DNA from: an uncultured Bacilli bacterium
Lineage (GTDB): Bacteria; Bacillota_I; Bacilli_A; RF39; UBA660
Assembly: GCA_947624955.1 (NCBI GenBank)
Contig: CANQMM010000001.1
Coordinates: forward strand, 962-64,961
Length of the DNA stretch: 64,000 nt
Direction of reading: 5' to 3'
In this document: positions 9,998 through 36,792 of the stretch, one piece after another
How the letters are laid out: each line of letters starts with the position of its first letter
Position numbering within the stretch: the first letter of the stretch is position 1
Translations under genes and position numbers: made by a program
Notes under the pieces: generated by a model
Told to the model about the DNA's origin: nothing
Seen by the model: the letters and a program-made list of their open reading frames with translations, nothing else
The model's database searches: none

Positions 9998-10708
9998 ATG
10001 GATCAAGAGAAAATTGGTAAATTCATTGCCGAATGCCGTAAAAAGCAAAAAATAACTCAACAAGAATTAGCTGAAAGATTAGGAGTATCCGACCGCACTG
10101 TCGGTAATTGGGAAAATGGTCGTAATATGCCGGACTTATCATTATTTAAACCCTTATGTAATGAACTAGATATTACCTTAAATGACTTAATGAGTGGTGA
10201 AAAAGTAAACCGCGAAGAATATCAACAAAAATTTGAAGAAAATATTGTCAATACCATTAATTACTCTACTAATAGAATAACTAAATATCATCAATTAATA
10301 TCTTTAATTTTAATTATCTTTGGTTTATTTGTATCTATTTCTGCTATTATGATTTTCCCTAGTGAAAGCAGTTGGAGTTCTATATATTCTGTATTAGGTA
10401 TAATGATTTTTATGATTGGAATTGCCAAAATAACTAAACATATGAAATGGTCTATTCGTTTATTAATCATAATAACAATATTTGCTTTCTCGATGATTGT
10501 CTTATTATTTACTGACTATTTAAACGTCAAATTTAATAATGAAGCCCCAATGTTTAGAATTACCACTACCTCTGCCGGTGATGTTGTATATTACAATACC
10601 CCATTTTATGATGTCTATCGTTGTCACATTGCTAAAGATAATGAATATTGGACTATTGAAAAAAATAGTAAGAAAACAATCAATGAGTTGATAAATTATT
10701 GTCATTAG
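9998..10708 (+). CDS. XRE-family HTH transcriptional regulator with C-terminal transmembrane domain (paralog 1 of 3)
   Basis: HTH QQELAERLGVSDRTVGNWENG; two TM helices after res ~100; RBS aaaggag; paralogous to 13311.. and 16050.. genes. Confidence 0.75.
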   Translation: MDQEKIGKFIAECRKKQKITQQELAERLGVSDRTVGNWENGRNMPDLSLFKPLCNELDITLNDLMSGEKVNREEYQQKFEENIVNTINYSTNRITKYHQLISLILIIFGLFVSISAIMIFPSESSWSSIYSVLGIMIFMIGIAKITKHMKWSIRLLIIITIFAFSMIVLLFTDYLNVKFNNEAPMFRITTTSAGDVVYYNTPFYDVYRCHIAKDNEYWTIEKNSKKTINELINYCH

Positions 10709-13310: not shown

Positions 13311-13967
13311 GTGAGAAAAGTGCAAAACTTAGGTGAAAGATTATATGTGTTAAGAAAAAATAAAAATTTATCCCAAGAAGAAGTAGCTGAAAAACTAAAT
13401 GTAACAAGACAGACTATATCTAAGTGGGAAACCAATCAAAGTGTACCGGATTTTGATAAAGTTATGCCTTTATGTGAATTATATGGTATAACTCCCAATG
13501 AACTATTTATTGAAATAAAGGAAAATAACTCCGAGAAAAATACTAGCTCAGATATAAATTTAGAAGAAGAAAAAATTAAGACCAGTAAGAAAGCTAAAGG
13601 CATAGCTTTAAGCGTCGTCTTATATTTTTTAGGAATAGTTTGGATAATGATAGCTATACCCGTGATGAATATGAACCCCGTAGTAGCATCGGCAATATTC
13701 TTACTTATCTGTGGCTTAGCTACCGGATTAATTATTTACGTATGTATTAGATATCACAAGACTAAAACCTTAGAAGAAACTGCTGATGATAAATTAAGAC
13801 ACCAAATATCTGATGTTGTTGCCATAATCGTTACGATTATCTATCTTATTATTAGTTTCCAAACAATGGCTTGGCATTTAACTTGGATTATTTGGATTAT
13901 ATATGGCTTGTTTACGGAAATCCTAAAATTAATATTTATGCTAAGGAGATTCCCCAATGAAAAATAA
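13311..13967 (+). CDS. XRE-family HTH regulator with transmembrane domain (paralog 2 of 3)
   Basis: HTH SQEEVAEKLNVTRQTISKWETNQ; 3-4 TM helices; GTG start; 11-nt overlap with downstream DUF4097 gene. Confidence 0.7.
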   Translation: MRKVQNLGERLYVLRKNKNLSQEEVAEKLNVTRQTISKWETNQSVPDFDKVMPLCELYGITPNELFIEIKENNSEKNTSSDINLEEEKIKTSKKAKGIALSVVLYFLGIVWIMIAIPVMNMNPVVASAIFLLICGLATGLIIYVCIRYHKTKTLEETADDKLRHQISDVVAIIVTIIYLIISFQTMAWHLTWIIWIIYGLFTEILKLIFMLRRFPNEK

Positions 13968-15656: not shown

Positions 15657-16049
15657 TGATATAAAATCTTTAAAAATAGAAGCTAAAGCTTAGCAATTGT
15701 TTCAAGAAGAATGGGTATAGAATCAAAGTTCTTATACTGAAAATACTTAATTTATCAGTTTCTGACATTTTAACGATGATACGGATAAATGACAAAATGT
15801 CCGTATGAATTAACTATATTTGAAATAATTGTTCCTTAAATTATTATTTCAATTCATCCTTTATTTATTAATTACAAATTTTTAAAGTATTGGTTTAGTA
15901 TATATATTTAATATGTACAATTCATTAAAAAATAGCTTAGTCATTTTCTAAATTAGTAATGTAGATTACATTTTTGTTTAATTCTCTCTTTATGTCCTGT
16001 TTATTATTTGATGTATGCTATATAATTCTTCTTGAAAGGAGCCGAAAGG

Positions 16050-16568
16050 ATGGATCAAGAAAAAATAGGAAAGTTTATAGCCAATTTAAGAAAAGAACAA
16101 AAATTAACCCAAGAGCAACTTGCCGAAAAGTTAGGCGTATCTGATAAGTCAGTAAGTCGTTGGGAAAATGGAAAATGCCTACCTGATGTATCTTTATATA
16201 AAGATTTATGTAATATTTTAGGTATTACTCTAAATGAATTTTTTAGTGGTGAAAAAATTAAAGAAGAAAAATTCAAAGAACAAGCTGATAACAATTTATT
16301 TAATGCCTTAGAAAATAGTTCTTTTACTTTAAAAGATAAGATAAAATATTATAGTGATAAGTGGGATAAGGAACACTTTTTTGAGTTAACTATTGCAATG
16401 ATTGCTATTGTCGGATTTATAATTTACGGTTTTATAAAAGATAATGGCATCCAATATATATTTATGATAATAGGTTTTACTTATGGTATTTGGGAAAATA
16501 ATCGAAAGAAAGCATATATAGAAAGAAACGCATATAGACAAATAAGTAGTAAAAATAAAGAAAGATAA
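16050..16568 (+). CDS. XRE-family HTH regulator with transmembrane domain (paralog 3 of 3)
   Basis: N-terminus MDQEKIGKFIA... nearly identical to 9998 paralog; start re-picked at ATG after aaaggag...gaaagg (track begins at upstream TTG). Confidence 0.7.
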   Translation: MDQEKIGKFIANLRKEQKLTQEQLAEKLGVSDKSVSRWENGKCLPDVSLYKDLCNILGITLNEFFSGEKIKEEKFKEQADNNLFNALENSSFTLKDKIKYYSDKWDKEHFFELTIAMIAIVGFIIYGFIKDNGIQYIFMIIGFTYGIWENNRKKAYIERNAYRQISSKNKER

Positions 16569-16675
16569 CTCGTTGACTTTTGGACAAATTAAAAATAACC
16601 AATTTTAGCAAGCCGTTTATATGGTTTGTTTTTTAAATGTTATGACAGTTCCTATTTAAAATGATGCACAAACTA

Positions 16676-16704
16676 TTGCCAAACGTACGTTTGCGTGGTA
16701 TAAT
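16676..16704 (+). promoter_or_regulatory. Sigma-A promoter (TTGCCA-17-TGgTATAAT) with perfect 14-bp palindrome CAAACGTACGTTTG in spacer (candidate LexA/SOS-like operator)
   Basis: Hexamers, 17-nt spacing and extended -10 TG seen in sequence; palindrome 16680..16693 resembles Cheo box GAAC-N4-GTTC half-sites (AAAC-N4-GTTT). Confidence 0.5.
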
Positions 16705-16726: not shown

Positions 16727-17581
16727 ATGAATCAAGATAAAATGCATTTAGTAAACAAAATATTTAATAACGAAACTATAAGAACAATATGGGATAAAGA
16801 ACAAGAAAAATACTTTATCAGTGTTGTCGATATAGTAGGGGTTGTATCCGAAAGTAAAGATGGAAGAAAGTATTGGAATAAATTAAAGCAACGCCTTAAA
16901 GAAGAAGGAAATGAGTCGGTGACAAATTGTCACCAACTGAAATTAAAATCTTCTGATGGTAAATATTACAATACTGATGTTGTCGATATCGAAGGTATGT
17001 TTCGCATAATTGAATCAATTCCGAGTAAAAACGCGGAACCTATAAAACAATGGTTAGCCAAACTAGGTAGTGAAAGAATTGATGAAACATTTGATCCTTC
17101 AATTGCTGCTCAAAGAGCGATAGATTTATATAGATTTAAAGGTTACGATGAAGAATGGATAGCCAAAAGAATTAAAGGTATTCAGGATAGAAAAAAACTT
17201 ACGGATGTATGGCAAGATGGTGGAATAAGCGAGACCAAAGAATATGCTATTCTAACGAATGAAATATACAAAGAATGGTCCGGGATGAAAGCCAATGAAT
17301 ATAAAGCATTTAAAGGTCTTAGAAAAGAATCCTTAAGAGATAATATGAGTGATATTGAGGTAGCCCTAGCTGATTTAGGCGAACTTGCTACAAGAGAAAT
17401 TGCTAAAGAATATAAGCCCTATGGTCTAGAACAAAATAAAATGATTGCTAAAATGGGTGGTAATGTTTCTAGAACTGCAAGAGATAATTTAGAGCAAAAA
17501 CTTGGCAAATCAGTAATCAGCAATCAAAATAATCTTAGTTATCAATATTTAGATGGAAAACAATTAGAAAATAAACGATAG
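16727..17581 (+). CDS. BRO-N/RhuM-N-like N-terminal domain protein with DinD-like (DNA-damage-inducible protein D family) C-terminal region
   Basis: Start re-picked at ATG after aggaggtaataaa; N-terminus ETIRTIWDKEQEKYFISVVDIVGVV aligns with N-termini of the two RhuM-like genes at 26454 and 28588; overall resembles DinD-family proteins. Confidence 0.6.
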   Translation: MNQDKMHLVNKIFNNETIRTIWDKEQEKYFISVVDIVGVVSESKDGRKYWNKLKQRLKEEGNESVTNCHQLKLKSSDGKYYNTDVVDIEGMFRIIESIPSKNAEPIKQWLAKLGSERIDETFDPSIAAQRAIDLYRFKGYDEEWIAKRIKGIQDRKKLTDVWQDGGISETKEYAILTNEIYKEWSGMKANEYKAFKGLRKESLRDNMSDIEVALADLGELATREIAKEYKPYGLEQNKMIAKMGGNVSRTARDNLEQKLGKSVISNQNNLSYQYLDGKQLENKR

Positions 17582-26314: not shown

Positions 26315-26453
26315 TGCCAAAGCAAAAACCCAAATAGTAAAAACTAAATTGCCCAAAGCTTGTTAAAACTTTGTTTGTGCGATATAATAAAGTTAGCAAA
26401 AAGTAAACAGTAAAAGTTCTATAGCTAACACAAACAGAAGGGGAAATATAAAT

Positions 26454-27416
26454 ATGAAAAATGAAATTATATTATTTGAAAATCAAAATGTTAAATTAGA
26501 GGTCAATATGCAAGATGAAACAGTATGGCTTTCATTAGAACAAATGGCTAAACTGTTTGACCGAGATAGAACAGTTATAGCAAGGCATATAAATAATGTT
26601 TTTAAAGATAATGAATTGGATAGGAATGAGGTATGTGCAAAGTTTGCACATACCACAAAACATGGAGCATTATCCGGTAAAACTCAAGTCAAAGAATTAA
26701 ATTACTATAATCTTGATATGATTATAAGTGTAGGTTACCGGGTAAAATCTAAAAATGGTATTATTTTTAGAAAATGGGCAACTAATGTCTTAAAAGATTA
26801 TATGGTTAAAGGTTATGCTGTTAATCAAAAACGATTAGAATATCTAGAGAAAACAATTAAATTAATCGATATTGCCGGTCGAATAGATGACGAATTACAA
26901 GGAACCGAAATCAAAGAAATAATAAAAGTCATAAATAATTATTCCCATGCTCTAAACTTATTAGATGATTATGATCATAAAAAAATAATAAAGCCCAAAG
27001 GAATTAAAAATAATAAAAAAATCACTTATGAAGATTGTAAGAATATAATTAGTAACCTTAAATTTAGTAATGATAGTGAATTGTTTGCACTTGAAAGAAA
27101 TGAAGGTTTAAAAGAAATTATTGGTTCAATATATCAAACTTTTGATGGTAAAGATTTATATCCTACTATTGAAGAAAAAGCCGCTAATTTCTTATATTTA
27201 ATAACTAAAAACCATACATTTATTGATGGCAATAAAAGAATAGCTGCCACATTATTTATCTATTTCTTAGAGTTTTATAATATTCTATATAACGAGAAAG
27301 GACAAGTAATTGATAACAATACTTTAGTCGCCATTACAATACTAATAGCTCAATCTAATCCCAAAGAAAAAAATATACTCATAGACTTAGTAATGAACTT
27401 TTTAGTTTCAAAATAA
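26454..27416 (+). CDS. RhuM-N-terminal domain fused to Doc/Fic domain (death-on-curing-type toxin motif HTFIDGNKR)
   Basis: N-terminal ~130 aa homologous to RhuM gene at 28588 (WLSLEQMAKLF...ISVGYRV...WATNVLK vs FWLTQKTMAELF...IAVGYRV...WATNTLK); C-terminal HxFxDGNKR Doc-type Fic motif; promoter TTGTTA-17-TATAAT at 26360..26388. Confidence 0.65.
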   Translation: MKNEIILFENQNVKLEVNMQDETVWLSLEQMAKLFDRDRTVIARHINNVFKDNELDRNEVCAKFAHTTKHGALSGKTQVKELNYYNLDMIISVGYRVKSKNGIIFRKWATNVLKDYMVKGYAVNQKRLEYLEKTIKLIDIAGRIDDELQGTEIKEIIKVINNYSHALNLLDDYDHKKIIKPKGIKNNKKITYEDCKNIISNLKFSNDSELFALERNEGLKEIIGSIYQTFDGKDLYPTIEEKAANFLYLITKNHTFIDGNKRIAATLFIYFLEFYNILYNEKGQVIDNNTLVAITILIAQSNPKEKNILIDLVMNFLVSK

Positions 27417-27528
27417 ATTTGATAAATAAATGGATTTGAAACCGGTGGAAATATTAATAAATTTTGGTTGCATACCAAATGATAATTACTTATAATATTT
27501 GTTATATATTTTGGAGGGAATGATTTTT

Positions 27529-28437
27529 ATGAAGGCAGAATTAGCTCATAACGTAGTAGCTTTAGCGCATATCTTTGGTTTAAAAATTACTAATTGGGTA
27601 GAGATTAATAATAGTATTAATTTTTATCACAACGATGTATTTGTAGGGAGTATCTCTTTAGAAAAGAGCGAATATACCGATGAATTTAATTTTACTATAG
27701 GCCATGCGTTCACTCTTTACCCATCAATCGGCCAAATAAAAGGAGTATATGAACCAGTTCGTGATGCCTTTTTCTATTCTTTTGCCAGAGTTAATTACAA
27801 CCAAACCGATTATAATAATACACATGGATTTGCTAGTAATTTATTGGCAAATGACAAAAAGATAGGCATATATAGAGATAATTCGCATAGTAGAATATCT
27901 TCAGAAGTTAAAATGACTAATACTAGTATCGAAATAAGAAGAAGAACTACCGAAGGTATATGGGATATTTTCGAATGTGCTTTGAATAATCTTCAAGAGA
28001 TGGAGACAGCAAGTCGTATTAAGCCTATAACCATAGAATTCAATTACATTAAAAGCGGTAAAGGTAAAGTTTTTAGTGAAGCTAAAATGTATATAGAAGA
28101 AGAAATAGAAAGTAAATCTTTTACGATTACTTTTAAATTCTTAAAAGAAAAATATACTACAAAAGTAAATTATAATGGAATTACTAGCATAGGAAAGTTA
28201 CAAAGTTTATATTTTGCTACGTTAATTGAAGAAATAAAAAGCAAGTGCCCAGATTTTGCCGCCTTAATTGATAAAGTAAAAGAAGAATTAAGCTTTCCTT
28301 ACTTTGGCGATAAAAGCATAAGCCTTTATGATAACATCGCTAATATGTGTTTAGATGATCCCGCATTCGCACTTTCTTTAGCTAGTCCTGCTGCTCCAAC
28401 CCCGGGAAATACAGCTAGGTTTGTTTTGAAATTTTAA
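27529..28437 (+). CDS. Hypothetical protein (302 aa), no recognisable motifs
   Basis: Start re-picked at ATG after GGAGGG (track starts 27499); soluble; lies between Doc-fusion and RhuM genes. Confidence 0.5.
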   Translation: MKAELAHNVVALAHIFGLKITNWVEINNSINFYHNDVFVGSISLEKSEYTDEFNFTIGHAFTLYPSIGQIKGVYEPVRDAFFYSFARVNYNQTDYNNTHGFASNLLANDKKIGIYRDNSHSRISSEVKMTNTSIEIRRRTTEGIWDIFECALNNLQEMETASRIKPITIEFNYIKSGKGKVFSEAKMYIEEEIESKSFTITFKFLKEKYTTKVNYNGITSIGKLQSLYFATLIEEIKSKCPDFAALIDKVKEELSFPYFGDKSISLYDNIANMCLDDPAFALSLASPAAPTPGNTARFVLKF

Positions 28438-28507
28438 AAATATATTAATAATGGACAAATTCTTTTATTTAAAAGATTTGTTTTTTATTGTAAATTAAAA
28501 TAGTATA

Positions 28508-28536
28508 TTGCCAAACAAATGTTCTTGATATATAAT
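28508..28536 (+). promoter_or_regulatory. Sigma-A promoter (TTGCCA-17-TATAAT) with AAAC-AAAT-GTTC inverted repeat in spacer
   Basis: Same TTGCCAAAC...TATAAT architecture as the DinD-like promoter at 16676; inverted repeat 28514..28525 matches GAAC-N4-GTTC on one half-site. Confidence 0.45.
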
Positions 28537-28587
28537 ATTTTTATCAAAGGATTTACTATGCCAAAAAAGAAAGAGAGGATTTTTATA

Positions 28588-29598
28588 ATGAATTTAAATA
28601 CTTTAAAAGATTTAATTTTATATCAAAGTCAGAATACAAATCAAACAATTGAAGTTTTATATGAGAATGAAGATTTTTGGCTAACTCAAAAAACAATGGC
28701 AGAGTTATTTAAGGTTAAAGTTAATACAATTAATTATCATTTAAAAGAAATATTTTCCAATAATGAATTAAATGAAAATTCAGTTATTCGAAAAATTCGA
28801 ATAACTGCCACTGATGGTAAAGATTACAATACAAACTCTTATAGTTTAGATGCCATTATTGCAGTTGGCTATCGTGTTAATTCAAAGGAAGCAACTGAGT
28901 TTAGAATATGGGCAACTAATACCTTAAAGGAATATATCAAAAAAGGATTTGTGTTAAATACCGAATTATTAAAAAATGGTCCAAAATTTGGTAAAGATTA
29001 CTTTGATGAATTGCTAGTTAAAATCAAAGAAATTAGAGCAAGCGAAAGAAGATTTTATCAAAAAATCACCGACATTTATAAAGAATGTAGTTATGATTAT
29101 GATAAAAATAGTGAAATTACAAAAGAGTTTTACAAAAATGTGCAAAATAAACTCCACTTTGCTATCACAGGAATGACTGCACCAGAAATCATATACAATA
29201 GAGTCGATTCCAAAAAAGATTATATGGGACTTCAAACTTGGAAAAATGCTCCTGATGGGAAAGTACTTGAAACGGATGTTGTAGTTGCTAAAAATTATTT
29301 GCAAGAAGAAGAAATAAAAGAATTAAATAATTTAGTTTCTATGTATTTAGATTTTGCTGAACGCCAAGTAAAATTAGGTCATATTATTTCTATGAAAGAA
29401 TGGAAAGATAAATTAGAATTATTTTTAAAGTTAAATGAATATAACATTTTACAAGATAATGATAAAATAACAAGAGAAATAGCTGATAAATTAGCACTTG
29501 ATGAATATGAAAAATATAGAGTTGTACAGGATCAAAAATATATATCTGATTTTGATGAACTTTTAATTGAAACCCAAAACATCGAATCATCAGAATAA
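28588..29598 (+). CDS. RhuM-family protein (virulence protein RhuM-like), full length
   Basis: Start re-picked at ATG after agagagga (track 28519); ~336 aa; conserved N-terminal domain shared with 26454 and 16727 genes. Confidence 0.7.
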   Translation: MNLNTLKDLILYQSQNTNQTIEVLYENEDFWLTQKTMAELFKVKVNTINYHLKEIFSNNELNENSVIRKIRITATDGKDYNTNSYSLDAIIAVGYRVNSKEATEFRIWATNTLKEYIKKGFVLNTELLKNGPKFGKDYFDELLVKIKEIRASERRFYQKITDIYKECSYDYDKNSEITKEFYKNVQNKLHFAITGMTAPEIIYNRVDSKKDYMGLQTWKNAPDGKVLETDVVVAKNYLQEEEIKELNNLVSMYLDFAERQVKLGHIISMKEWKDKLELFLKLNEYNILQDNDKITREIADKLALDEYEKYRVVQDQKYISDFDELLIETQNIESSE

Positions 29599-32241: not shown

Positions 32242-34281
32242 ATGGCAAATACATCTACATTAAGAAATGATCAAAGAAAACTTCTAGAACGTTTATATAA
32301 TCTTAAAAGTGACGATAGTGATGTTATAAGTAATATCCGGCAAAGCATTAGTGCCAATGAAGAAACAGGTCAAAGAATTCAAACCGAAAAAGAAGACTGT
32401 GAAAATCAAAAATCATCTAAAACCGATAGAAAAGTTCAAATTGAAAATCAATATCAAAAGTTTTTAGATGATTTAAAAGGCATCTCTAAAGATAGTTACA
32501 CTGTTCTTTTAGAAGAAGCTGAAGAAAGTTTTGACCCTGAGGCAATGCTTGAAAGAATCAAAGAAAGAATTCCTAAACGTTTAGAAGAAATAGAAACCTT
32601 AATCACTAGTTTAGAAGAGAAAATTGCTGCTAGTGAAAATGCTTTAAGTGAAAATAGCTTAACAGCTCAAGAATTAGAAGAAAAACTTGCTGATGCTGAA
32701 CGCGTACGCGCTGACTTAGCAAAACTAATTGACGAATCATTACACGGTAATGGTAGTATAACTCGTGATTCTGTCGAAGAAATTCTTGCTAAATTAGGAT
32801 TTAAAGAAGAAGAAATTATTGAGTTAGGTAAAATGATTCTTTTCCCACAAGGAACATTAGAATCTTTTGATGCCGAATATCAAGAAAGAAAAACTGAAGG
32901 TCACACAGTTCCCGAAATTTTAGGAGCTAGACCAGAAGAACCTACGGCTGAACCAACACCTGAATCTGAACCAATTAAAGTAGTTGGTAGTGAACCAACC
33001 GGAGCTGCAGAACCCAATACCACTCCCAGTGAAGATGCTTCTGTAGAGAAAGTTACTGAAACTCCAGAAACTGCGCCTGAAGCAGCCGACTATTCTGAAT
33101 TTTATGAACAAACTGGTATTCAACCCGGCTTCTTATCTGAACAAGCCGTAGCTGAATTATCAGCCGTTAATAAACCACAACTAATTAAAGAAAATTATGC
33201 TACGTTAACTAGTTTAGAAATCTCTGATACGAATATTAAAACCTACTATAGTGCATTAATCGATCCGGATTTAAATGGCAAAATTAAATTATTCCAAGAA
33301 CTAGGTAAAACTTCAATCGATATGAATTTAAATTTCCCAACTTTACTAGTATATAGTTTAGCTGACTTAGAAGAATTAAAAACTTTATGTGAAGAATCTG
33401 ATTTAAGTCTAGGTAATATTCCTTTAAATGTTTTAGGTAATGGCTTAACAGATTTCTTTGAAAACCTTGCTACACTATCTGGCAGTCATACAGAATTAGA
33501 TGGTAGTGAAGTAACTAAAAGAGCAGCTCTTTTAGCGACTGCTAGTTCACAATTTAAAAATAACTTAAATATGCTTAATAAATATGCTTATAGCTTGACT
33601 AAGAAAAATGGTAAAACAGCATTACAACCACTCGCTCAAGATAGTACAGAACTAGCCACCGGCTTAGATGCCGTTATCGAAACCGGAGAAGATCGGATAT
33701 TTGATAATGAACCGGATAAATTAGCAATTAACTTAATGGATTTAGCAAACCGTATTGCTTATTGTCATAAAAATGCTATTCCACTTTATAATGAAAGTGG
33801 TGCTCCTCATCACTTTATCTTCGATGAAGCAGAATTCGCTAAAGTCTTTGAACCATTAGATCCTGAGACGATTAAAGAAATTCCAACTGCTGAAGAAGCC
33901 CGAGGAAGTCTTCAAGAAACAACTAATAATTCTTCTCTAATAGACCTATTAGATAAAATGGATTTAACAACTTTATATGAAACGGGTCGCAATATTACTG
34001 ATGAAGAAGTATATTTTGGTCTTCAATCATATTTAGGACAACTTGCTGAGTATGAAAATGAAACTCACCGCGCTTACATTATCGATGGTGTTACCTTATC
34101 TAAAGAAAGAACGGAAAGAAACCTCGTTCAATTAATCAAGAATCCTACTGATGGTAAAGCTGAAGAAATTTTAGTGGTTGCTCTATTGTATGGTGCTTTA
34201 AAGTCTAAAGAAGATATGGTCAAGGTGGCAAACGCTATGGGTTTTAGTGAACCAAGTGTTGAAGGGAGTGTTAGATTATGA
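32242..34281 (+). CDS. Large cytoplasmic acidic protein (679 aa): N-terminal coiled coil, Pro/Glu/Thr-rich linker, ~400-aa C-terminal domain; hypothetical
   Basis: RBS gaggagtgg; promoter TTTACA-17-TATAAT upstream; no TM or signal peptide; no recognisable motifs. Confidence 0.55.
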   Translation: MANTSTLRNDQRKLLERLYNLKSDDSDVISNIRQSISANEETGQRIQTEKEDCENQKSSKTDRKVQIENQYQKFLDDLKGISKDSYTVLLEEAEESFDPEAMLERIKERIPKRLEEIETLITSLEEKIAASENALSENSLTAQELEEKLADAERVRADLAKLIDESLHGNGSITRDSVEEILAKLGFKEEEIIELGKMILFPQGTLESFDAEYQERKTEGHTVPEILGARPEEPTAEPTPESEPIKVVGSEPTGAAEPNTTPSEDASVEKVTETPETAPEAADYSEFYEQTGIQPGFLSEQAVAELSAVNKPQLIKENYATLTSLEISDTNIKTYYSALIDPDLNGKIKLFQELGKTSIDMNLNFPTLLVYSLADLEELKTLCEESDLSLGNIPLNVLGNGLTDFFENLATLSGSHTELDGSEVTKRAALLATASSQFKNNLNMLNKYAYSLTKKNGKTALQPLAQDSTELATGLDAVIETGEDRIFDNEPDKLAINLMDLANRIAYCHKNAIPLYNESGAPHHFIFDEAEFAKVFEPLDPETIKEIPTAEEARGSLQETTNNSSLIDLLDKMDLTTLYETGRNITDEEVYFGLQSYLGQLAEYENETHRAYIIDGVTLSKERTERNLVQLIKNPTDGKAEEILVVALLYGALKSKEDMVKVANAMGFSEPSVEGSVRL

Positions 34282-34565
34282 TGTTCTTATCTGAATTAGG
34301 ATTTGATAATTTACAAATTAAAGCGATTGAAAAAAATATTCCCAAACTAATAAAAGAGCAAATAAAAAATTCTCAAGAATTAGTTAAGATGAATATTTCC
34401 TTCCTTAAAGACTTGGGTGTTAAAAATTATCGGGAAGCTTTTAAATCTTATTATGATATGTTTTTAATGGATAATAGTTCATTTACTGCTATCTTTGCGA
34501 AATATGATCGTGATGATTTAATTGAAAAACTTGAAAAGAATATTGCTATAATTGAACATCTATAA
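34278..34565 (+). CDS. Small protein (95 aa) translationally coupled to 32242..34281, hypothetical
   Basis: ATGA start/stop overlap; GGGAGTG RBS inside upstream gene end. Confidence 0.45.
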   Translation: MMFLSELGFDNLQIKAIEKNIPKLIKEQIKNSQELVKMNISFLKDLGVKNYREAFKSYYDMFLMDNSSFTAIFAKYDRDDLIEKLEKNIAIIEHL

Positions 34566-34704
34566 AAAGGAGTAATTAATTTTATTCCTTTTTTAAGACT
34601 TTCAATTCAAACAAACGTATGCTATAATAAAAATGTAATAAACAATAAAAATAATATTCAAATAAAGTTTTATTTGGTATAATTTTTATGACAAGGTGGT
34701 AAAA

Positions 34705-36792
34705 ATGAACTATTTAGATGGATTAAATGAACAACAATTAAAAGCTGTAAATCATATTGATGGGCCGTGTCTAGTCCTTGCCGGAGCCGGTAGTGGTAAA
34801 ACGCGTGTTCTGACTACTCGTATCGCTAATCTTATTGACAATGGGATTTACGGTAGTCATATCTTAGCCATAACTTTTACTAATAAAGCCGCTAAAGAAA
34901 TGAAAGAACGTTTAAACAAACTTATCCCCGATAACAATGTTTTTGTGGGAACTTTTCACGCTCTAGGTGTTCGTATTATAAGAGAAAATTATAATTTATT
35001 AGAATTAGATAAGAACTTTACCATTCTCGATAGTGAAGATGTTTTAAGTGTAATTAAAAAAATTCTCAAAGAATTAGGTTATGATCCCAAACTAAATTCC
35101 CCAAGTTATATTCGTAATCGCATCAGTTTTATCAAAAATGAAATGCTTAGCGCCGGGGAAATTGCCAAATTTTTTAACACTCCTGCTGAAAAAGTTGCGG
35201 AGAAAGTTTATTATGAATATCAATCCGTCTTAGCTCGGAATAATTCTGTCGACTTTGATGATTTACTCGTTTTACCAGTTGAGTTATTTGCAAGTCATCC
35301 CGAAATCTTAGAAAAATATCAAGAACGTTATCGCTACATCCTTATCGATGAATACCAAGATACTAACGAGGTTCAATATAAATTTAGTAAATTACTCGCT
35401 AAAAAGTATCGTAATATTTTCGTCGTTGGTGACCCTGATCAATCTATCTATATGTTTCGGGGGGCGAACTTCCGGAATATCCTAAACTTTGAAAGTGATT
35501 ATCCCAGTTCCGAGATTATTCCCTTAGAAGAAAATTATCGTAGTACTAACTACATTTTAAAAGCTGCTAACTCCGTCATCAAAAATAATAAAGAACGGAA
35601 AGAGAAGAATTTGTTCTCCGCCAAAGGCGACGGCGTCAAAACCAAATATATCCGCGCTTACGATGGGAAACACGAAATAACTCTCGTTATTGAAGAAATT
35701 AAAAAATTACTTAATGAAGGTTTTAGCAAAAAAGATATTGGAGTTTTGTACCGGACCAATGCTCAATCCCGCTTACTCGAAGAAATGTTTATTAAAGCCA
35801 ATCTCCCTTATAAAGTAGTGGGTAGTTATTATTTCTATAATCGTAAAGAGGTCAAAGATTTACTAGCTTATTTACGCCTTATCCAAAATCATCACGACGA
35901 TATTAGTTTAAGAAGAGTCATAAATGTCCCTAAAAGAGGTATTGGCGCTTCAACTTTAACCAAACTAGAAACTATTGCTAAAGAGAATAATACCTCGATG
36001 TATGATGCGATTAGCGGCGGTAAAGAGCAAACTTTTAAAGACTTAATCGCCGAGATTACCCAAGAAAGTGAAAACATCTCTTTAACGGAGTTAATCGATT
36101 TAATTCTAGATAAGACCGGGATGCAAGCCGAGTTAGAAAACGAAAAGAGTTTAGAAAACGATCTACGTTTAGAATATTTGCAAGAATTTAAAAGCATCAC
36201 GGCTTCCTTTGAAGAACGTACCGGTAGTGTTAATTTAGCCGATTTTTTAGAAGAGGTCAGTTTAATTGCGGATATCTCTGACCATCAAGAAAGTGAAGAT
36301 GTCATAACTTTGATGACTCTCCATAGTGCCAAAGGCCTTGAGTTTGAAGCTGTATTCATCGTCGGTATGGAAGATGGCATCTTCCCCCACGCCAATGCCT
36401 TTTTAGAAGAAGGGGGCTTAGAAGAAGAGAGACGCTTGTGTTATGTTGGTATTACTAGAGCTAAACAAAGATTGTATATTAGTAATGCGAAAAGAAGAAT
36501 TCTCTATGGTAAAGAAACGATGAATCCTCCAAGTCGCTTTATCGATGAAATCGACTCTAACTTACTCGATGTCCAAAATGAATTAATGCAAGAACAACCC
36601 AAAGTCGATAAAGAAGCCATCTATACCAATACTGATGCTGAATACCAAAATGGTGATGTTGTAATGCACACTATCTATGGCCGCGGCGTTGTCATTGATA
36701 TGCAAAATGATTTAGTAACTATTGCTTTTGCCAAAAATTTTGGTATTCGCAAAGTAATGAAAAGTTATAAAGGTCTAAGAAAAATTTCATAA
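34705..36792 (+). CDS. pcrA: ATP-dependent DNA helicase PcrA (UvrD/Rep family)
   Basis: Walker A AGAGSGKTRVLT; UvrD helicase motifs through length; start at ATG after AAGGTGG; adjacent ligA as in many Firmicutes. Confidence 0.9.
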   Translation: MNYLDGLNEQQLKAVNHIDGPCLVLAGAGSGKTRVLTTRIANLIDNGIYGSHILAITFTNKAAKEMKERLNKLIPDNNVFVGTFHALGVRIIRENYNLLELDKNFTILDSEDVLSVIKKILKELGYDPKLNSPSYIRNRISFIKNEMLSAGEIAKFFNTPAEKVAEKVYYEYQSVLARNNSVDFDDLLVLPVELFASHPEILEKYQERYRYILIDEYQDTNEVQYKFSKLLAKKYRNIFVVGDPDQSIYMFRGANFRNILNFESDYPSSEIIPLEENYRSTNYILKAANSVIKNNKERKEKNLFSAKGDGVKTKYIRAYDGKHEITLVIEEIKKLLNEGFSKKDIGVLYRTNAQSRLLEEMFIKANLPYKVVGSYYFYNRKEVKDLLAYLRLIQNHHDDISLRRVINVPKRGIGASTLTKLETIAKENNTSMYDAISGGKEQTFKDLIAEITQESENISLTELIDLILDKTGMQAELENEKSLENDLRLEYLQEFKSITASFEERTGSVNLADFLEEVSLIADISDHQESEDVITLMTLHSAKGLEFEAVFIVGMEDGIFPHANAFLEEGGLEEERRLCYVGITRAKQRLYISNAKRRILYGKETMNPPSRFIDEIDSNLLDVQNELMQEQPKVDKEAIYTNTDAEYQNGDVVMHTIYGRGVVIDMQNDLVTIAFAKNFGIRKVMKSYKGLRKIS

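Follow-up and report, generated by a model that had tools for sequence, protein, structure and literature searches.

The window, that is, the whole stretch of 64,000 nucleotides analysed here, contains a full-length rhuM gene, a gene for a RhuM-Doc fusion protein and a gene for a BRO-N/DinD-like protein. They lie in a chromosomal setting (ABC transporters, a two-component system, pcrA-ligA, tex, asnB and murE-like genes), and no prophage was found around the rhuM and BRO-N genes in the window. The main features are the following, with scores and ranks referring to the matrix introduced further below:

16607-16630: terminator ahead of the promoter of the BRO-N/DinD-like gene
16676-16704, plus strand: twin promoter of the BRO-N/DinD-like gene (TTGCCA, 17 nt, TATAAT, TG-extended -10)
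16680-16693: predicted LexA operator, a perfect 14-bp palindrome, CAAACGTACGTTTG (AAAC-GTAC-GTTT; matrix rank 2, score 13.21)
16727-17581, plus strand: BRO-N/DinD-like gene, 284 aa, with a BRO-N domain and a weak DinD-like C-terminus (PADLOC PDC-S13)
26360-26388, plus strand: promoter-like site, TTGTTA-17-TATAAT with AAAC-TTT-GTTT (N3), ahead of the RhuM(N)-Fic/Doc gene
26454-27416: RhuM-Doc fusion gene, RhuM N-terminus and Fic/Doc (PADLOC PDC-S23)
28446-28490, plus strand: AT-rich hairpin with T-run, likely the terminator of the upstream gene (-10.8 kcal/mol, z -2.4)
28508-28536, plus strand: sigma-A-type promoter of rhuM
28512-28525: predicted LexA (Cheo-type) operator of rhuM, 14 bp, CAAACAAATGTTCT, the best matrix match in the window
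28588-29598, plus strand: rhuM, 336 aa (PF13310; PADLOC PDC-S05)
34600-34628: upstream pcrA promoter (TTTCAA 34600-34605, 17 nt, TATAAT 34623-34628)
34607-34622: third-ranked box, TCAAACAAACGTATGC, in the upstream pcrA promoter (matrix score 12.29)
34705-36792: pcrA

The rhuM product matches the profile PF13310 (E 2e-101) with 338.9 bits against a cut-off of 33.7, covers 250 of the 252 profile positions and passes the Pfam gathering score. Its most likely start is the ATG at 28588, which gives the length of 336 aa common to more than 100 homologues. All three proteins match PADLOC families of single-gene phage-defence candidates, namely PDC-S05 in the case of RhuM (E 2e-140), PDC-S23 in that of RhuM-Doc (E 1e-121) and PDC-S13 in that of the BRO-N/DinD-like protein (E 7e-112). 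Residues 142-257 of the latter are collinear with positions 136-250 of the DinD profile NF008573, with a weak score of 20.2 bits; as this lies below the equivalog cut-off of 242, the gene is not a DinD equivalog, and PDC-S13 is the family that it matches best. The profile matches bear out the identities that a sequence-only reading had assigned to the three genes (full-length RhuM, RhuM-Doc and BRO-N/DinD-like protein). Its description of them as a paralog set stands for RhuM and RhuM-Doc, which share an N-terminal domain (41% identity over the N-terminal 127 residues), and is stretched for the BRO-N/DinD-like protein, whose similarity to RhuM is weak (E 9e-5).

The gene between RhuM-Doc and rhuM (27529-28437, 302 aa) has no Pfam, NCBIfam, PHROGs or PADLOC match, and its only relatives among the fetched loci are identical copies carried by two short contigs from ENA (L184 and L185). 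Its product could be a partner of the Doc fusion or the matching immunity protein. The window also holds paralogous XRE-type HTH proteins (9998-10708, 13311-13967 and 16032-16568), at least the last of which has an apparently membrane-spanning C-terminal part; homologues of these proteins recur near rhuM in L018 and L042. A search of the whole window (1-64000) against Rfam gave no family at or above its gathering score. Judged by its PcrA homologues, the organism belongs with uncultured gut Bacilli near 'Ca. Coprovivens'.

The rhuM promoter has the hexamers TTGCCA (28508-28513) and TATAAT (28531-28536) at the distance expected of a sigma-A (sigma-70) promoter ahead of its gene (17 +/- 1 nt). 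Eleven of its 12 hexamer positions agree with the consensus, its 17-nt spacer reads AACAAATGTTCTTGATA, and 52 nt separate it from rhuM, with a ribosome-binding site ahead of ATG 28588. The layout described in the sequence-only reading, i.e. TTGCCA, a spacer beginning with AAAC, 17-nt spacing and TATAAT, was thus recovered in full. The same reading noted an inverted repeat, AAAC-N4-GTTC, made up of AAAC (28513-28516), AAAT (28517-28520) and GTTC (28521-28524). This repeat is present but imperfect, its arms being AAC/GTT or AACA..TGTT, and the accompanying remark that one half is a perfect Cheo half-site understated the box: its minus-strand sequence is AGAACATTTGTTTG, i.e. GAAC-ATTT-GTTT, a full member of the GAAC-N4-GTTT operator class. 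It conforms to the Cheo/DinR core GAAC-N4-GTTC/T with a matrix score of 16.41.

Besides the rhuM promoter, the exact string TTGCCAAAC has one further copy in the window. This lies at 16676, about 12 kb away, where it opens the promoter of the BRO-N/DinD-like gene, TTGCCAAACGTACGTTTGCGTGGTATAAT. In agreement with the claim that the rhuM promoter copies the architecture of the DinD-like one, both boxes begin at the final two bases of the -35 hexamer and occupy the spacer of a promoter with 11 of 12 consensus positions. Both also deviate from the consensus by an A in place of G; the BRO-N/DinD-like box does so in both halves and has a GC-rich centre in addition. Its agreement with the Cheo core is accordingly weaker (13.21), yet its orthologues have GAAC versions. 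A hairpin with a T-run upstream of the rhuM promoter suggests that rhuM would be its own transcription unit, and since a terminator-like hairpin precedes each of the three promoters, the three genes would form separate units.

By frequency or score alone, the motif is not above chance in the window. AAAC-N4-GTTY occurs four times against 6.3 expected, promoter-like hexamer pairs number 116 against 114 expected, and among random 64-kb sequences of matching composition 7.5% contain a matrix score of at least 16.4 and 21% contain three sites of at least 12.3. These figures are what would be expected if the sites were ordinary constitutive promoters in AT-rich intergenic DNA, carrying short imperfect repeats without function. 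The placement of the sites, however, argues against such an explanation. With a matrix built only from promoters of BRO-N/DinD-like orthologues from other metagenomes, the three best of the 64,000 positions are 28511 (16.41), 16679 (13.21) and 34607 (12.29), followed by 9.2 at rank 4; experimentally bound LexA sites score between 16.2 and 21.0. All three matches are intergenic, in a window of which 8.6% is intergenic, and all lie in promoter spacers (rhuM, the BRO-N/DinD-like gene and pcrA). Near-consensus promoter spacers hold two of the three AAAC-N4-GTTY sites, and under a relaxed box pattern three of seven window sites are intergenic. The sequence-only reading had named background frequency with no enrichment at promoters as the outcome that would speak against it. 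This outcome was not obtained: the motif is at background over the window as a whole, yet concentrated at promoters. Placement thus exceeds chance, and the conservation among orthologues described next adds to it: boxes recur in unrelated promoter layouts, with half-sites conserved and centres variable, so that a coincidence without function appears quite unlikely.

The rhuM orthologues were sampled from 75-80 other genomes (RhuM 79-93% identical; 575 kb of fetched DNA, in loci numbered with the prefix L). RAAC-N4-GTTY occurs 52 times in these 575 kb and 26 of the 52 lie within 150 nt upstream of rhuM, upstream regions scoring at least 12 with the independent matrix amount to 23 of 75 orthologues versus 1.0% of control chunks, and an unbiased dyad scan returned GAAC-N4-GTTT as the top enriched pair (P 2e-28); since common descent links many of the Clostridial rhuM promoters, these counts overstate the number of independent events. 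The box occurs in at least four different promoter layouts. In many Clostridia it directly follows the -10 (TATAAAAT-ACAAACAAAAGTTC), in L002, L005, L031 and L036 it is joined to the -35, like the window box, and in L018 and L051 it abuts the -10. Among rhuM orthologues of the 'Bacilli' type only about a quarter have a box. A comparison of L005 with L031 and L036, all 'Bacilli' relatives, nevertheless shows the half-sites kept while the centres drift, which suggests selection within this lineage.

In one Clostridial locus (L052, 3900-5030) the rhuM stop codon lies 12 nt before uvrB-uvrA, and the sole upstream promoter is TTGACA-17-TGTAAAAT, followed by the box ACAAACAAAAGTTC. This arrangement looks like an SOS operon of rhuM and uvrBA. 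Four further Clostridial loci (L045, L046, L059 and L065) have rhuM directly before pcrA. A GAAC-N4-GTTT match before pcrA in L046 was discounted, as it lies inside a terminator hairpin. The apparent transcriptional joining of rhuM to uvrBA and its position directly before pcrA hint that RhuM may have a role in the DNA-damage response itself, and would not act only as a toxin.

For the BRO-N/DinD-like gene, 60 non-redundant upstream regions of orthologues with 58-82% identity were compared. At most two mismatches to CGAAC-N4-GTTCG were found in 12 of the 60, whereas the share among controls was 1.15% (P 4e-12). These boxes occupy the spacer between -35 and -10 (e.g. CGAATAAATGTTCG and AGAACAAATGTTTG) and include textbook forms (TTGACGTGCGAATAAATGTTCGTTATAAT, TTGTAATAAGAACAAATGTTTGATATAAT and TTGACGTAGAACATATGTTTGTGTATAAT). 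Within the same promoter spacer they are of the types CGAAT/AGAAC-N4-GTTCG/GTTTG, with AAAC variants at the same spot in L135, L139, L145 and L082; again the half-sites are conserved and the four central bases variable. A scan of viral contigs returned one orthologue with 70% identity and a box (L082), more distant homologues inside phage operons without boxes, and no close homologue of RhuM-Doc. A phylogenetic footprint is thus present for rhuM and for the BRO-N/DinD-like gene, and for RhuM-Doc in L186 and L187 only.

The site ahead of RhuM-Doc had been put forward as a third, weaker copy of the arrangement. Its sequence is as described, and the regulatory match is not supported: its best matrix score is 1.47 (rank 237 of the window positions), which is background and below what a LexA operator calls for, and most RhuM-Doc orthologues, including those of L190-L194 and L200-L206, have no box upstream. 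In view of the matrix score and the orthologues, AAAC-TTT-GTTT at 26360 was rejected as a LexA box, and the promoter is probably outside LexA-type control in the window genome. In L190-L194 a large serine recombinase precedes the orthologue at a distance of about 50 nt, a position suggestive of mobile-element cargo. L186 and L187, which stand for one related genome, are the exception. Here the RhuM-Doc orthologue is driven from a perfect Cheo box, TTGACGAACAAATGTTCTTGCAATAAAAT (TTGACGAACAAATGTTCTTG in L186), and in L186 the next gene, encoding a BRO-N protein, is driven from TTGATTTACGAACATTTGTATGCTATAAT (CGAACATTTGTATG). The RhuM-Doc protein of L186 is 89% identical to that of the window, and its box is the string of the window's rhuM box with G replacing A. 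The promoters themselves are near-identical strings, TTGCCAAACAAATGTTCTTG for rhuM in the window (28500-28540) and TTGACGAACAAATGTTCTTG for RhuM-Doc in L186 (120-200). From these sequences, it seems that a promoter-operator cassette is passed around among the members of the gene set.

Taken together, CAAACAAATGTTCT at rhuM and CAAACGTACGTTTG at the BRO-N/DinD-like gene are likely to be Firmicutes LexA operators of the Cheo type (GAAC-N4-GTTC/T), a reading to which we give a probability of about 0.7. It accounts best for the data on the strength of the orthologue footprints and of the LexA binding published for a rhuM site from the gut. Of the co-regulated, SOS-type set proposed for the three genes, LexA-type control therefore finds support at the rhuM and BRO-N/DinD-like promoters and none at RhuM-Doc. 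A LexA dimer on the rhuM box would reach from the final two bases of the -35 to spacer position 12, covering about two thirds of the spacer, and would thereby exclude RNA polymerase from a near-consensus sigma-A promoter. Upon DNA damage, or with single-stranded DNA arising from phage, activated RecA would lead LexA to cleave itself, and with LexA gone rhuM and the BRO-N/DinD-like gene would be transcribed from their strong promoters. The non-consensus A of CAAAC (consensus CGAAC) is at the same time the last base of the -35 (TTGCCA) in the window, and L186 has TTGACG-AAC, a better operator and a worse -35. The choice of A or G where the two elements overlap may hence represent a compromise between a strong promoter and effective repression.

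Palindromic operators are typical of XRE-type repressors as well, and a gene for such a protein (HTH_3; 16032-16568) lies directly upstream of the BRO-N/DinD-like gene. The boxes could in principle serve this regulator, or the repressor of a mobile element, instead of LexA, and the recurrence of its homologues near rhuM in two other loci would fit. These homologues are, however, absent from the loci of boxed BRO-N/DinD-like orthologues, and the local XRE regulator was rejected as the binding factor on account of this lack of linkage. The motif itself equals the LexA consensus and is common to the unlinked genes rhuM, BRO-N, pcrA and, via rhuM, uvrB in many genomes, as one would expect of a global regulator, and LexA of B. 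subtilis binds a rhuM site in vitro (Cornish et al. 2014). A repressor other than LexA is thus very improbable. By inspection, the motifs of cre, CodY, Fur/PerR, Rex, CIRCE, CtsR and NrdR did not fit the boxes.

A further question is whether LexA operators would still be in use in the window genome, given the apparent mobility of the genes. RhuM is far more conserved across genomes than PcrA, with 79-94% identity where that of PcrA is only about 45% and, for one and the same pair of genomes, 79% against 45%. RhuM of the window 'Bacilli' genome is 79-85% identical to that of Clostridia (L045-L081) whose PcrA is only about 45% identical, and RhuM-Doc is 85-89% identical across hundreds of contigs; these identities point to recent horizontal spread or to unusually strong constraint. 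The block of RhuM-Doc, the 302-aa gene and rhuM (26454-29598) is missing from the syntenic ABC-transporter/pcrA region of L195-L198 and looks like a horizontally acquired accessory island, so that the operator could stem from the donor. It might then be a fossil that arrived with the genes and is now idle in a host that lacks LexA or whose LexA prefers another site. The change of the consensus G to A in both boxes and the patchy occurrence of boxes among the closest relatives would agree with this, as would the outcome of tblastn searches with B. subtilis queries, in which lexA, recA and dinB gave no match, either in the window or across the 1 Mb of fetched loci; uvrA and uvrB gave none in the window and were found, among the fetched loci, in L052 only. 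Two observations nonetheless speak for a site in use. The half-sites are kept by close 'Bacilli' relatives while the centres drift, as described above, and the core gene pcrA has a box in its promoter spacer, as does one relative. The score of the pcrA box (12.29) is within the range of chance and a box is found in one of four relatives: L198/L199 have AGAAACAAAAGTTCGT at -87, and L195-L197 have none. On balance, an idle operator is an unlikely prospect, and LexA operators in use remain our preferred reading.

pcrA seems to have a second, proximal promoter (34675-34683; TGGTATAAT, with the -10 at 34678-34683), which is boxless and conserved in relatives. Directly upstream of pcrA (32242-34565) lies a gene of 679 aa, overlapped by another of 95 aa, neither with a Pfam match, and a pair of a large gene and a 95-aa gene occupies the same place in L195-L198.

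A broader interpretation would see LexA control as a conserved, horizontally travelling trait of stand-alone candidate anti-phage genes in gut Firmicutes, and the genes as an SOS-gated layer of defence or toxicity. The genes concerned are RhuM (PDC-S05), the BRO-N/DinD-like gene (PDC-S13) and, in some genomes, RhuM-Doc (PDC-S23). This interpretation is advanced tentatively, and it may well prove too broad. RhuM has been put forward by Anantharaman et al. (2013) as a toxin domain that is frequently joined to Doc and occurs in defence neighbourhoods, and according to a preprint a PDC-S05 (RhuM-domain) gene protects about 1,000-fold against T7 and T5. Given this protection and the matches of all three genes to PADLOC defence candidates, quinolones, other DNA-damaging drugs or phage infection could induce genes of this kind throughout gut communities. 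The wider pattern, SOS-gated candidate defence genes travelling between gut Firmicutes, is worth pursuing. At the level of the single promoter, the overlap of -35 and operator illustrates how one base may trade promoter strength for repressor affinity.

Several known systems allow a comparison. In E. coli, dinD is a classical LexA-repressed, damage-inducible gene that encodes a BRO-N protein, and the LexA motif of this organism is CTGT-N8-ACAG. The BRO-N/DinD-like gene of the window resembles dinD in its BRO-N N-terminus, its weak DinD-like C-terminus and its apparent control by LexA; it differs in the LexA motif, and its product falls far below the DinD cut-off. The LexA-controlled antirepressor and moron genes of prophages (Gifsy, 186 Tum and N15; Lemire et al. 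2011, PMC3121763) are likewise accessory genes wired to the LexA of the host through an operator in their own promoter, as is predicted here. Those genes, however, encode small antirepressors that induce prophages, whereas the window has stand-alone RhuM and BRO-N proteins and no prophage.

In Clostridium difficile, LexA binds GAAC-N4-GTTT at lexA, recA and ruvC, as measured by SPR (Walter et al. 2014, PMC4234289). The recA operator of this organism, AGAACAAATGTTTGT, resembles the rhuM box of the window on the minus strand, AGAACATTTGTTTG, as well as several boxes of BRO-N/DinD-like orthologues. The organism and the genes are different, and the binding measured there compares with a box known from its sequence here.

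The closest precedent comes from the human gut metagenome, which was mined for Gram-positive LexA sites by Cornish et al. (2014; Bioinformatics 30:1193, PMC3998124). In that study a gut rhuM (COG3943) had a site, TCGAACAAATGTTCGA, at -96 that was bound by B. subtilis LexA in EMSA, and COG0210 (uvrD/pcrA) was among the core SOS clusters of the gut meta-regulon. LexA regulation of rhuM was thus predicted and shown in vitro in 2014, and the concepts are unchanged by our analysis. What it adds is a well-documented comparative case for the idea that gut Firmicutes keep accessory genes of the RhuM and BRO-N types under an SOS switch. The published rhuM site and that of the window belong to the same gene family, come from gut Firmicutes and share an identical AAAT centre (TCGAACAAATGTTCGA versus CCAAACAAATGTTCTT in the window), and a phage-integrase site of the same study, TCGAACAAATGTTCTT, differs from the rhuM box of the window at two positions. 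Unlike the latter, the published rhuM site forms a perfect Cheo box, lies at -96 in GC-richer surroundings and was bound in EMSA, while the predicted operator of the window has one CAAAC half and is embedded in the -35 and the spacer of its promoter.
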